Part shown: one piece after another, positions 14,238 through 47,373 of the stretch
How positions within the stretch are numbered: position 1 is the stretch's first letter
Layout: every line of letters begins with the position of its first letter
Origin: Escherichia phage ECO95 1-6-1
Reading direction: 5' to 3' (one strand)
Length of the DNA: 47,511 bases
Sequence record: OR845258
The notes under the pieces: model-generated
Databases searched by the model: none
Told to the model about the DNA's origin: nothing
Seen by the model: the letters and a program-made list of their open reading frames with translations, nothing else
Translations under genes and position numbers: made by a program

Positions 14238-14467
14238 ACCCTAACCCCCATAATTTCTTCGTAATAACCATCTTCTTCAAACTCAATCTTTGCGATTTTG
14301 AGCGCATCCTCATCTGTGATGTCAATCGCTTTGAATTTGCACTTTGCCAGCACAATGCAGCCAGACAGGATTAACCACTTATTCCACCAGCGCGCTCGCT
14401 TGATTGTCTTGCACGCATACATTGCGTTCCGCACAAACCAGAACTCGTATGTTTTAACTTTTGCCAT
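14234..14467 (-). CDS. hypothetical protein (about 77 aa)
   Basis: ATG at 14467 (M13 of the track ORF); overlaps the 3' end of the Lar-like gene. Confidence 0.4.
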   Translation of the reverse strand: MAKVKTYEFWFVRNAMYACKTIKRARWWNKWLILSGCIVLAKCKFKAIDITDEDALKIAKIEFEEDGYYEEIMGVRV

Positions 14468-14657
14468 ATAAATCAACATTAACCCTGCGATTCCAGTCGG
14501 CAATTGCCTGCTCTGCAGACTCCCTGAAGTTTGTCATTCTAGCCCCGCATGAGCATCGAATCAGGAAGTATGGTTTCTCATGGTCATATGAACGCCATGG
14601 TTTAACCTTTGGCTCGCCACCACAAAACGGGCAACTCTTGATAACCAACTCACTCAT
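14454..14657 (-). CDS. Lar-family restriction alleviation protein
   Basis: MSELVIKSCPFCGGEPKV...FLIRCSCGARMT...AEQAIADWNRR: zinc ribbon plus the AIxxWNRR signature of Lar-family proteins; ATG at M14 of the track ORF. Confidence 0.6.
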   Translation of the reverse strand: MSELVIKSCPFCGGEPKVKPWRSYDHEKPYFLIRCSCGARMTNFRESAEQAIADWNRRVNVDLYGKS

Positions 14658-14705
14658 ATCATCACCATGTACATAGCTGAATCGTTTGCAGTTCAATAAA
14701 ACACA

Positions 14706-14906
14706 TCAAAGCTGATGGTTTGCCTGTCCAGATATAATTACCTCGTCCAGCACGCGTTTATCACCATCTTTGTGCCATACACGGCACACCTTCGAGCATC
14801 GTGCAGACTTCACTGCTCGCTCCACCTGCCTGCTCATAAAGTTCTGCGCGCCAACGTGTCCAAGCTCCTGTTCCAGTTTTTCGCGAAGATAGATAGTCTT
14901 TGCCAT
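14706..14906 (-). CDS. hypothetical protein (66 aa)
   Basis: ORF in the same minus-strand operon. Confidence 0.45.
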   Translation of the reverse strand: MAKTIYLREKLEQELGHVGAQNFMSRQVERAVKSARCSKVCRVWHKDGDKRVLDEVIISGQANHQL

Positions 14907-15263
14907 TTGTTAAACCTCATAAGAGTTAATGATTGCCTTAATGCGACGGCGATACCACTGCATGATGTGTTCGTTATGCCAGTTGCTCATTTTGTTACTC
15001 CCTATACCCTGATTTAGAAACTGCCACTGCGATGATGATGAACGCCACGATAACCAGGCTGGCGATAAGTTCGAGTGTTGCGCCTGTCATTTGCTTAACC
15101 CATACGCAGAGATTAAGGCCTGCATTTCAGCGTTCCAGAATACTTCGGCAGGAATGCTGTTGTTTGTGCGCTCAACTGCAATGCGTGCCATAGCCTGCGC
15201 ATCTTCAAATTCTTCACGGTCTTTGATTTTCATCTCTTCACCCTCGCTTGTTTCGATGATTTC

Positions 15264-15292
15264 AATCTATATCAGTTGTGATTCTACGTCAA
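15264..15292 (-). promoter_or_regulatory. sigma70-like promoter for the minus-strand small-gene operon
   Basis: On the minus strand: TTGACG + 17 nt + TAGATT, then a GAGGGTGAAG RBS and an unlisted 48-aa ORF (about 15085..15231). Confidence 0.5.
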
Positions 15293-15448
15293 TATACAGA
15301 GAAAGAAAAAACACGACCAAATGTTAGTGTACGCTAGCTAACATATATAGTTACATACATTACTAATAGTAAACTTTGTTTATTAACTATATAAAGTATA
15401 TTGAGATCTTCTTTATATTTATTATAGATATTAATACCTTAAGCTACA

Positions 15449-15478
15449 GAAACACGAAAACCAGCAATTTAGCTGGTT
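15449..15478 (+). terminator. terminator-like hairpin within the AT-rich non-coding region
   Basis: Hairpin ACCAGCAA-TT-TAGCTGGT followed by TATTTTTTAG. Confidence 0.35.
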
Positions 15479-44316: not shown

Positions 44317-45602
44317 TATTCTGGTGCCTCCATATCAAAATCGTCATCAGCGTGGTTCGGCTGGAAGCCACCTTTCAGCGCAGCAGGCTTGCTGGTCAGC
44401 GCATAGGTTTCACGCAGTGCTTCGCCTTTCAGTGCATTCACAGCAGATTCCGGCAGTTTCAGTTCAGCGATGATAGCAGCACGCATCGCGGTTTCTTCCT
44501 GCTCAGTATTCGCCTGCAATTGCTCTTTCAGCTTAACGTTTTCAGCTTCGATGTCGGTCAGCTTCTGGTTGACAGCTGTCAACGATTCCTGAACCGGCTT
44601 GAGGGCTTCAGCGAGTACCGCCTGTAATTCCTCGTTCGTCATTGAGATTTCCCCTTCAGTTGATTTTACCGGCTCAAGTTCAGTCTTATAAACAGCCTTG
44701 ACCCGCTCACCGACCAATTTTACCACATCATCTTCAACGATGTAGAACTGCTGGAAAATCTGGCCTTTGATTTCAAATCCAACACGGTCATCATACACGG
44801 CCACGATATAAGGCCAGACATCTTCACCGACTTCAGCCTTAAGAATCTGGCGAATCTGCTCACTGATATTCTCAAACGACAGGTCTGATTTGTTGGTGAT
44901 GTAGTTGATGGCTTTATGTAGCCACGATTTATAATTAATTTTGTTGGCGCTTTCGTCCGGCACGGTTGAATCCTCAAGGTTTACAGTAATGCGTTCGATT
45001 TGCTCGCCATTGGTGGCAAAGATTCCCACGCCATCTTCTGGCGTTCCGGCTCCCGGCACTCCCGGTGGCAGGATGGCAAGATGGTCCCACTCCATGTTGC
45101 GCGCAATCCATGTGTATTTCTTGCCCTTGCTTGTACCTTCCGCAGCTTCGCGGTTGAGCAATAAGCCAGTGGATACATGGATTGGTTCAGCGCCTTCTGC
45201 GTTATCCATGAGCGCTTTGATGCGTGAAAGCAATTCCTGACCTTTCTCTGAACGTTCGGCGATAACTTTATTAATCTTCAGGTCAACAAGTACCTTGCCG
45301 CCATCGTGTGAGGCGTTTTCAATCCATGAGCCAACATGGTACTGGTTCACAGCGCGAACGTTGTGAGCTGACACATAAGCGCCATCCACCATTGGGTGAT
45401 TGTACGGGGCTGGATTGCCATTCAGTCCATCATAGGATTTCTTGATTTCGTCGGCGGGATACATACCGCCATTCATCACTACATCGTCCACAAGCGGAAT
45501 GACATTTTTAATAACGTAGTGGTCATCGCCATCAATAATCTGCTCACTGATATTGCTGGCAGAATTGATGGTGGTGAGCACGTTGACTTGCAGCTTTTTC
45601 AT
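44316..45602 (-). CDS. putative head scaffolding / prohead maturation protein
   Basis: 428 aa; C-terminal third is a predicted coiled coil ([40 protein letters not shown]) with acidic terminus; immediately upstream of the decoration and capsid genes. Confidence 0.5.
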
Positions 45603-45937
45603 TGCATAGCTCCACGGTTAGCTCGTGTCGGAATTATACCACAGAGCAATAAAGCACCACGACAGCGTGGCGAGAGGATACAGAATGGAAGGATAGATGG
45701 CAGAAAGTGAAAGGAAGAATATGATTTGAGTTATGAACATGGCTGCACCTCCAGATTTGATGGTAGCAGCCATGCGTTAAATGTATGTAATAGATTAGTC
45801 TGATAAAACGTCATCTGCGAAGGCAAGCAACGCGCCAGTCATGCAGAAAAGCAATCCATATGCAGCAACGTGAGTAAGCGAATCGGCATTAAGCACTCGA
45901 CAGAATGCGTATGCTCCGGTAATCCATAGTAATGGAA

Positions 45938-46123
45938 TCATTTGCATACCCTCATTATCTTGCGACTATGAAACACGTGAGATGAATCCTGTCTAACCGG
46001 CATTGACCCCACTGGCGATTGCTCGCAGCGAATACACTTTCTAATCCAATATTTTTGACCAGGATTAAATCTGTACCAATCCTTTGACTCCCCGCACCTG
46101 TAGCACTGATACTTGCGCATCAC
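45938..46123 (-). CDS. hypothetical zinc-finger protein (61 aa)
   Basis: CYRCGES...CIRCEQ cysteine pairs. Confidence 0.4.
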   Translation of the reverse strand: MMRKYQCYRCGESKDWYRFNPGQKYWIRKCIRCEQSPVGSMPVRQDSSHVFHSRKIMRVCK

Positions 46124-46446
46124 ACCAACCCCGCATTGCGTTTAGCCTTATGGACCAGTTCCATGAATCGACCAACTGACATTGTTTTACGCACCTCAGC
46201 AAGGATAACGCCATGCAGAAGGCGGTCTTCACCGTAGTACAGTTTATCCAGTCGAGTACGAACCAGTGCACGAGTACGTTTCATATGGTTACGCGCCTTC
46301 ATTGCCCTCTCTCGCCATGTTTTAGCGTCCTTGTCAGGATGCTGCAATTGACGTTCAATGCACTCAATTTCATATGCGAGCTGCATATCCATATCATCCA
46401 GTTCATTGATATCTGCCGTCATAATTTCATTCAGTGGAATAATCAT
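46120..46446 (-). CDS. hypothetical protein (108 aa)
   Basis: 4-nt overlap coupling with neighbouring genes. Confidence 0.45.
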   Translation of the reverse strand: MIIPLNEIMTADINELDDMDMQLAYEIECIERQLQHPDKDAKTWRERAMKARNHMKRTRALVRTRLDKLYYGEDRLLHGVILAEVRKTMSVGRFMELVHKAKRNAGLV

Positions 46447-46835
46447 TTCTTCACCTTTAATCCTGCTTGTTCGATTGCTTGTACAAATGCATCCATCGCA
46501 TCACCAAATCCATTTGAGTAATCAACCATGTAACCTTTATCCAGAACCGATCGAGAATCAATAAATTCTGGCTGCTCAATGTCAATAGCTGCGCGTGATT
46601 CCTGCCATGCTTCCCATCGCTGCTGAATGATGGTATTCACATATTCGCCATTATCAAGGAATGCAAAATGAATACCAGGGAACAGCTTTTCGCTAACCCA
46701 CTTTTCAAACTGCTCTCTGCTCGTCATCTTAACTTTCTCCACTATCCAGCCCATCTTTCTGCGATTTTCCGCGATAAACTTATCACTGGTGACGAATAAA
46801 ACGCGGCCTGATTTGTGTTTCACTAACCACCTCAT
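46443..46835 (-). CDS. hypothetical protein (130 aa)
   Basis: 4-nt overlap coupling with neighbouring genes. Confidence 0.45.
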   Translation of the reverse strand: MRWLVKHKSGRVLFVTSDKFIAENRRKMGWIVEKVKMTSREQFEKWVSEKLFPGIHFAFLDNGEYVNTIIQQRWEAWQESRAAIDIEQPEFIDSRSVLDKGYMVDYSNGFGDAMDAFVQAIEQAGLKVKK

Positions 46836-47134
46836 CCACGCACCGCACGAAGCAGCTGTGTCAGGTAATTATTGCCGCCGAAATGCTGCTTTGGCACGTA
46901 GCTATGACAGCGGATAGTTAATGGTTTAACCTTGATGTTGTCGACGCCGATAGATTCTTCTATCTCGTAAACCTTACCGCTAAGTTTCACTTCCTCGCGC
47001 ACTCGCATATCATGAAGCGCGCAACTTACTTTGGCATATACCGCAAATGGCGACCTATGCGAATCGCATATCTGCTGGAGGGTTCCTGATTTGTGATTCT
47101 TGAAGTAATTAATAACAATTTCGCGACCAGTCAT
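46832..47134 (-). CDS. hypothetical protein (about 100 aa)
   Basis: ATG at M24 of the track ORF; ATGA overlap with the upstream Lar-like gene. Confidence 0.4.
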   Translation of the reverse strand: MTGREIVINYFKNHKSGTLQQICDSHRSPFAVYAKVSCALHDMRVREEVKLSGKVYEIEESIGVDNIKVKPLTIRCHSYVPKQHFGGNNYLTQLLRAVRG

Positions 47135-47373
47135 AAATCTCGCTCCTGACCTGCCTGTTTGAAGTCTTCTGGTGTGTAGAGGTGTCCGTTGCGGGTGTTC
47201 CATGACTCGATGGCTCCTTTATCGGTCATGTAAGCACCAGTTCTGCATCCACACTCATAGCATTCAACAATCCACTCGCCATCAATGGTATCTGCATGAG
47301 CTATTGTTGCTTGGCATAATGGGCACTCTAAAACCCCTTCGCCATTCATCATCGGCATATGTGGCGCTGTCAC
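47131..47373 (-). CDS. Lar-family restriction alleviation protein (second paralog)
   Basis: LECPLCQA...IVECYECGCRTGAYMTDKGAIESWNTRN: the same zinc-ribbon plus AIxxWNxR architecture as 14454..14657; the true start may be an internal ATG. Confidence 0.55.
   Translation of the reverse strand: MTAPHMPMMNGEGVLECPLCQATIAHADTIDGEWIVECYECGCRTGAYMTDKGAIESWNTRNGHLYTPEDFKQAGQERDL

Follow-up and report, generated by a model that had tools for sequence, protein, structure and literature searches.

The type member of the Lar family (PF14354, TIGR03655) is Lar of the Escherichia coli Rac prophage, also called RalR (b1348), which by the account of King & Murray 1995, as cited in PMC4041452, alleviates restriction by EcoKI and enhances modification. 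The Ral protein of phage lambda, 67 amino acids long, alleviates type IA restriction and speeds the methylation of unmodified sites via HsdM's N-terminal domain (PMC12707154). Here we analysed a stretch of 47,511 nucleotides from Escherichia phage ECO95 1-6-1 (sequence record OR845258), and "the window" below means this whole stretch. It carries two genes, referred to as Lar1 and Lar2, whose sequences identify them as bona fide members of the Lar family, and we put the probability that their products have a role in the alleviation of type I restriction at about 0.5.

Both predicted proteins resemble Rac Lar in being 60-80 amino acids long and in combining an N-terminal CPxC knuckle, a second cysteine pair and a helix with W-N-x-R, and like Rac Lar, which lies beside recET and kil, both are encoded in a phage accessory-gene region. 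Unlike Rac Lar, which belongs to a lambdoid prophage, they are encoded by a virulent-type siphovirus. Neither is a RalR orthologue (identity 34-38%), and no adjacent RalA small RNA (sRNA) was found beside either gene. Lar1 further differs from RalR in its CxC second knuckle, and Lar2 in its added conserved N- and C-terminal extensions and in a T replacing K52. Lambda Ral is a proposed functional analogue, the likeness lying in the proposed function only: Ral is not a Cys4 zinc ribbon, and a Pfam scan gave no match to the lambda Ral family for Lar1 or Lar2 at E-values up to 10.

Family membership of the two genes

An earlier note on this DNA had placed a Lar-family gene at each of two coordinate pairs without giving a strand. 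Both pairs correspond to intact open reading frames (ORFs) with the Lar signature, and both lie on the minus strand, where the frame is clean, while the plus-strand frame at each position is full of stops. Lar1 (14454..14657, minus strand; MSELVIKSCPFCGGEPKVKPWRSYDHEKPYFLIRCSCGARMTNFRESAEQAIADWNRRVNVDLYGKS) is predicted to encode a single-domain Lar-family Cys4 zinc-ribbon protein of 67 amino acids. It starts with ATG, with GGTGA about 5 nt upstream, and contains C9-P-F-C12-G, C35-S-C37-G and AIADWNRR (W55-N-R-R), the predicted zinc ligands being C9, C12, C35 and C37. The CxC spacing of the second knuckle, shared by Lar1 and its nearest relatives, is atypical for the family, the consensus of which is CxxC. 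In the AlphaFold2 model (predicted local distance difference test score, pLDDT, 82.8), two beta-hairpin strands forming the zinc ribbon are followed by a helix at residues 48-63, and AIADWNRR lies on this C-terminal helix.

Lar2 (47131..47373, minus strand; VTAPHMPMMNGEGVLECPLCQATIAHADTIDGEWIVECYECGCRTGAYMTDKGAIESWNTRNGHLYTPEDFKQAGQERDL) is predicted to encode a Lar-family zinc-ribbon protein of 80 amino acids. Its GTG start overlaps the stop of the upstream gene (GTGA), with GAGG 8 nt upstream, and the following gene's ATG in turn overlaps the Lar2 stop (ATGA). The predicted zinc ligands are C17, C20, C38 and C41, and the AlphaFold2 model (pLDDT 85.4) has two beta-hairpin strands forming the zinc ribbon, a helix at residues 51-59 and an extra C-terminal helix. 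The signature attributed to both proteins in the earlier note (CPxCG, a second CxCG pair and AIxxWNxR) holds literally for Lar1 (CPFCG, CSCG, AIADWNRR) and loosely for Lar2, in which the first knuckle is CPLCQ without the G and the second is CxxCG (C38-Y-E-C41-G); the third element, AIESWNTR (W58-N-T-R), fits.

Profile searches gave a significant Lar-family match for both proteins, as the note had expected. Against PF14354, whose gathering score is 28.6, Lar1 scored 43.2 bits (E 4.6e-11) and Lar2 36.6 bits (E 5.3e-9), each with near-complete cover of the 58-position model. Lar1 also scored 44.0 bits against the NCBIfam model TIGR03655 (anti_R_Lar), above its cut-off of 39.6, and phrog_599 ('Lar-like restriction alleviation protein') matched both proteins at about 1e-11 each. 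With the K-12 Lar/RalR sequence taken from NC_000913.3 as reference, hhalign aligned RalR with the Lar1 family at 98.8% probability (E 1.3e-16) and with the Lar2 family at 97.5% (E 5e-12), and the two families with each other at 98.7%. Alignments of 77 and 30 homologues showed the four cysteines and W-N-x-R without variation. The family is large, with 4307 matches by profile search and 550 representatives of 50%-identity clusters by exhaustive phmmer; the 3 homologues recovered with Lar1 by a single-sequence word-index search reflect the sensitivity limit of that tool, as compared with the 4307 found by profile.

In related phages, the orthologues at the same positions already bear the name 'Lar-like restriction alleviation protein' (gp32 and a second copy in IME207, VSt472 gp76, LPSTLL gp52, Skate gp29, Bas80_0028 and KFSST1), none of these annotations being based on experiment, and in the RefSeq record of IME207 (NC_031924.1) both copies carry the Lar-like label. 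Since public annotation already covers orthologues of either gene as well as the two-copy arrangement, Lar1 and Lar2 are new members of a known family only. The gain is the correct annotation (strand, starts and family) of two genes in an unannotated genome, and little beyond that.

Core and accessory copies

The phage belongs among the Skatevirus-like siphoviruses that infect Salmonella, E. coli, Klebsiella and Shigella and have genomes of 45-48 kb. Searches of 50,697 phage records with tblastn found Lar2 orthologues in 201, all full length and at the same position, including Bas80, whose copy is 50.6% identical and annotated Lar-like. Judged by this distribution and by the overlapping starts and stops, Lar2 has been inherited as a syntenic gene throughout the Skatevirus-like clade and is predicted to be translationally coupled to its neighbours. 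Lar1 was found by tblastn in 9 related records, which amount to about six phages: besides S.Kent 1-2-1, orthologues with 86-90% identity occurred only in LPST49, VSt472, KFS-SE2, KFSST1 and IME207. Lar1 is an accessory gene, probably acquired horizontally, that sits in a variable cluster read leftward, divergently from the primase region; blastn gave no match to an E. coli chromosomal or prophage source.

Pairwise identity was about 31-34% between Lar1 and Lar2, 38% between Lar1 and RalR, and 34% between Lar2 and RalR. Many metagenomic Lar proteins (35-48% identity) are nearer to Lar1 than Lar2 is, which argues against a duplication within the lineage. The earlier designation of the two genes as paralogs is thus sound as to homology, which the family-to-family comparison supports, but not as to a recent duplication, given their low identity and the difference between a core gene in 201 records and an accessory gene in 9. 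They look like a core and an acquired copy that are distant homologues. Of the 150 representatives of 50%-identity clusters nearest to Lar1, about 52 are single polypeptides of 110-160 amino acids with two or three tandem Lar domains (P0034, P0048, P0052, P0142, P0150 and P0152 are examples), and pairing of domains seems to be frequent in the family.

Lar2 of the window (47131..47373) was compared with the orthologues in L001 (6903..7142), L005-L008 (about 3495..3749), and L009 and L010 (10001..10249). Syntenic orthologues were 43-64% identical to it, the closest GenBank phage copy reaching 63.6% and metagenomic relatives 83-86%. Throughout the clade, the N-terminal 20 and the C-terminal 27 residues (the latter with WNTRNGHLYTxxDFxQAAxERD) are nearly invariant, and they include clade-specific extensions, MTAPHMPMMN at the N terminus and NGHLYTxxDFxQAxxERD at the C terminus. 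The segment from residue 21 to 53, which lies between and beyond the zinc knuckles, is hypervariable and falls into deeply divergent 'alleles'. The window carries a different allele of this central segment from the annotated phage relatives. Compared with same-allele relatives, which are the 83-86% identical metagenomic phage contigs, the ratio of nonsynonymous to synonymous substitution rates (dN/dS) was 0.03-0.2 for Lar2 and 0.03-0.05 for the central segment, indicating purifying selection that is strong in the centre; between alleles the centre is saturated, with a proportion of nonsynonymous differences (pN) of 0.5-0.65. Gene-specific fast evolution of Lar2 was considered and rejected, as its identity to relatives (49-64%) falls among the values for its cluster neighbours (45-73%). 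Head genes share 92-95% amino acid identity with those of Salmonella and E. coli relatives, as against 45-73% for the small-gene cluster around Lar2. Because this cluster diverges as fast as Lar2 itself, we claim no gene-specific arms-race signal, and the pattern within the gene, conserved ends and a variable centre, is the only evolutionary signal that stands in these alignments.

Restriction alleviation and competing explanations

By analogy with Rac Lar and lambda Ral, Lar1 and Lar2, once expressed, would bind the host type I (family IA) restriction-modification (R-M) complex, and the bound complex would be shifted from restriction towards de novo methylation. The outcome would be a partial alleviation that benefits mainly replicating, co-infecting and progeny genomes and not the first incoming unmodified genome. 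Ral/Lar-type proteins must be expressed before acting, and Loenen and Murray reportedly described in 1986 that alleviation of this type leaves the first incoming genome unprotected. The R-M target, the alleviation effect and the early expression are what we infer here, above all for Lar2, which belongs to a diverged subfamily. In the literature on phage Lar-like proteins, we found mentions in annotation only and no functional work.

The genome contains 3 EcoKI sites, as against 7.3 +/- 2.9 expected, 7 sites for AACN6GTRC (10.5 expected) and 5 for GAGN6RTAYG (4.0 expected), all within chance; for these counts we used what we take to be the type IA recognition sequences in REBASE. As type IA sites are not depleted, an active counter-measure would be useful to the phage.

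Several points weigh against restriction alleviation as the role of these proteins. Rac Lar, 34-38% identical to Lar1 and Lar2, is the only tested member of the family, and it was later reported as a Mg/Ca-dependent non-specific deoxyribonuclease (DNase) toxin controlled by the RalA sRNA (PMC4041452). Lar2 scored 31.5 bits (E 1.7e-7) against TIGR03655, under the cut-off of 39.6; judged by Pfam and by profile comparison it is a Lar-family member, lying outside this narrower model. Searches of the PDB with phmmer and Foldseek found no related solved structure, only generic zinc ribbons with non-significant E-values. Moreover, the E. coli Skatevirus phages Bas78-80 are still restricted, with an efficiency of plating (EOP) of 0.02-0.2 on EcoKI, for which they have one site per genome (PMC11990801 S1 Data), and of about 1e-4 to 1e-3 on EcoCFT_I (PMC11990801); on type II and type III systems, their EOP is 1e-5 to 1e-7 (PMC11990801). 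As Bas78-80 are restricted, and Bas80 is confirmed to carry a Lar2 orthologue, Lar2 confers no broad protection, a capacity that the earlier note had thought possible for the pair. The plating data are nevertheless weak counter-evidence to alleviation as such, because Ral/Lar-type activity does not protect the first incoming genome. The last of these points concerns timing, in that promoter-like sites near both genes occur at chance frequency.

The earlier note had assigned the two genes to two different early-gene clusters. Both lie in runs of small, fast-diverging genes that read leftward from divergent intergenic regions, beside lambdoid accessory genes (Ead/Ea22-like, DUF7540 and NinD), and on this gene content 'early' is a plausible, though tentative, label for both clusters. 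Sites resembling promoters turn up at chance frequency, and each run continues on its own strand into genes for packaging or the head, which weighs on the label.

The main rival, which we hold tentatively and at clearly less than even odds, is that the function of Lar1, of Lar2 or of both lies outside R-M, either as a generic small zinc ribbon for interaction or nucleic-acid binding or, for Lar2 in particular, together with its coupled downstream gene or a different partner from host or phage, in roles such as regulation, takeover of the host or the countering of another defence system. Such a partnership is suggested by the fact that, in all relatives examined, Lar2 overlaps the gene in the downstream position and the pair is conserved, although in the window this gene (46832..47134) has neither a detectable winged helix-turn-helix (wHTH) domain nor similarity to the same-position gene in relatives. 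The near-invariant extensions of Lar2, which are absent from Rac Lar, its hypervariable, allele-like centre and its score under the TIGR03655 cut-off fit a separate role, as do the R-M sensitivity of Lar2-clade phages and the nearest structural matches, generic zinc ribbons of transcription or translation factors at non-significant E-values. A family of 4307 matches with a single tested member likewise leaves room for other functions, but homology of both proteins to Rac Lar is clear and no positive evidence for any alternative target emerged.

It is less likely, and in our judgement unlikely outright, that Lar1 and Lar2 resemble RalR in being small non-specific DNases, dependent on metal, whose damage to host DNA serves as a takeover device or toxin. 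RalR is reported to cleave methylated and unmethylated DNA and to be toxic, its toxicity depending on residues 14, 37, 39, 49, 51 and 52 (PMC4041452). At the positions of RalR N51 and K52, Lar1 has N56 and the basic R57, which would suit such an activity, and N51 is conserved in both proteins; R49 is replaced by D54 in Lar1 and S57 in Lar2. At the K52 position, however, the Lar2 clade has an invariant T (T60), and K52Q abolished the DNase activity of RalR (PMC4041452). Against the RalR equivalog model NF007260, Lar1 and Lar2 scored 16.4 and 27.4 bits, compared with a cut-off of 113, and a zinc ribbon of 60-80 amino acids has no recognisable nuclease fold. A RalA-like RNA was not found either: the only Rfam match in the window at gathering level is a tRNA, in a scan for which the presence of a RalA model in Rfam was not checked, and blastn of K-12 ralA gave chance matches of 10-17 nt, none near either gene. 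An unregulated non-specific DNase would presumably also cut the phage's own unmodified DNA.

A long shot is that Lar1 and Lar2, although unlinked, pair as a heterodimer in imitation of tandem Lar proteins, for example by engaging both HsdM subunits of an M2S methyltransferase core, with the hypervariable centre of Lar2 setting which R-M family or other host target is recognised. The tandem Lar domains in about one third of the close Lar1 representatives hint that Lar modules may act in pairs. Were its centre to set the target, Lar2 would be a counter-defence module with switchable specificity, as opposed to a simple Lar orthologue.

That the two frames are chance or decayed sequences resembling zinc ribbons and are unexpressed is effectively refuted by conservation, since, very short as both ORFs are, they have HMM (hidden Markov model) E-values of 1e-9 to 1e-11, orthologues in many phages under purifying selection, ribosome-binding sites with coupled start/stop overlaps, and confident AlphaFold2 models.

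A role in restriction alleviation is therefore the reading we prefer for Lar1 and Lar2, and its standing bears on how such genes are named. The label 'Lar-like restriction alleviation protein' on phage genes rests on one tested prophage protein, the activity of which is disputed between alleviation and DNase. Candidates from this clade for phage therapy or biocontrol should not be credited with demonstrated R-M evasion on the strength of the Lar label, as related phages remain R-M sensitive. The Lar family is very large and almost untested, and core (Lar2-type) and accessory (Lar1-type) copies would be informative on the function of the Lar domain.

Gene neighbourhoods and genome context

The leftward run that contains Lar1 starts at a divergent intergenic region (15234..15902, from the ORF list) facing the primase operon, where a consensus scan gave candidate promoters at 15292..15264 (minus strand) and 15848..15876 (plus strand), at chance frequency. 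Lar1 is the third gene of this run, which comprises a 48-amino-acid gene, DUF7540, Lar1, phrog_10786, an Ead/Ea22-like gene, three small genes and an HNH endonuclease. The HNH gene (12014..12517, minus strand; phrog_99, 3.8e-68) closes the run. After it lies the best terminator-like hairpin of the region (11871..11853, minus strand; 7-bp stem with 5 GC pairs and a T7 tail), which is located just upstream of the genes presumed to encode the small terminase and TerL. The second gene downstream of Lar1, 13755..14237 (minus strand), encodes an acidic protein of 160 amino acids, and the same-position gene is annotated Ead/Ea22-like in relatives. This protein was considered as a third Lar gene on account of a match to phrog_3592 'Lar-like' (1.9e-5, N-terminal 94 residues) and was rejected, having no cysteine pairs and no Pfam Lar match; its phrog_3592 score probably comes from a non-Lar segment of a PHROG that includes fusions to Lar domains, or the PHROG is mislabelled.

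The run containing Lar2 starts at the divergent intergenic region 624..720 on the ORF map, a layout kept in relatives. A candidate promoter, TTGACT-18-AATACT, lies at 695..666 on the minus strand, and such sites occur at chance frequency. The run proceeds through two or three small genes, 426..623 and 151..345 among them, a 75-amino-acid gene and Lar2, about the fourth gene, and continues onward, crossing the circular junction of the genome on the way. The junction falls within the 75-amino-acid gene (47370..47511, continuing to 163; minus strand), the stop of which overlaps the GTG of Lar2 and orthologues of which in IME207, Skate and Bas80 are 45-49% identical.

Directly downstream of Lar2, and overlapping the stop of Lar2 with its start codon (ATGA), 46832..47134 (minus strand) encodes 100 amino acids. 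Some relatives have a gene annotated wHTH/MarR-like at the corresponding position (LPSTLL gp53, IME207 gp34 and VLCpiS13d gp25). The window gene had no Pfam or PHROG match and no tblastn match to LPSTLL, IME207, Skate, Bas80 or VLCpiS13d, and it may be a non-orthologous replacement in a conserved slot after Lar2. It is followed on the same strand by several small genes, including one for a NinD-family small cysteine-rich protein (45938..46123, minus strand; PF17466, 4.5e-20), and then by the genes for a DUF2213 head protein, head decoration and the capsid. A hairpin at 45672..45655 was set aside as an operon boundary, as it lies inside a conserved small ORF.

Positions 1..77 of the window are identical to 47435..47511, a duplication of the ends that looks like the k-mer overlap of a circularised assembly. 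This 77-nt identity argues that the window holds an entire phage genome, circular or permuted and 47,434 unique bases long, in which Lar1 and Lar2 are about 14.5 kb apart across the circular junction, as against 32.7 kb the other way. Unannotated contigs of Salmonella phage S.Kent 1-2-1 (wastewater, Turkey) match the window at 100% identity. A PHROGs scan of 30 neighbouring and additional ORFs, which is not an exhaustive annotation of the genome, revealed no methyltransferase and no other anti-restriction gene, and a regular-expression scan of all six frames of the window found no third ORF of Lar architecture.

In the metagenomic relatives L010 (11781..13178 and 16076..16807) and L009 (4090..5178), inserted genes of DUF723/T5orf172 type (homing-endonuclease-like) and a GmrSD_C-like gene adjoin the head module; they are absent from the window. 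A tRNA-Met gene with a CAT anticodon lies at 37039..37115 (plus strand; ARAGORN, and Rfam 63.4 bits) in an ORF-poor stretch between the tail and replication modules. Small ORFs of the CxxC...CxxC type occur at 12543..12611 (minus strand), 21591..21692 (plus strand) and 41494..41598 (plus strand). Besides the Lar pair, the genome is rich in predicted small zinc-ribbon proteins, the NinD-family gene product among them.

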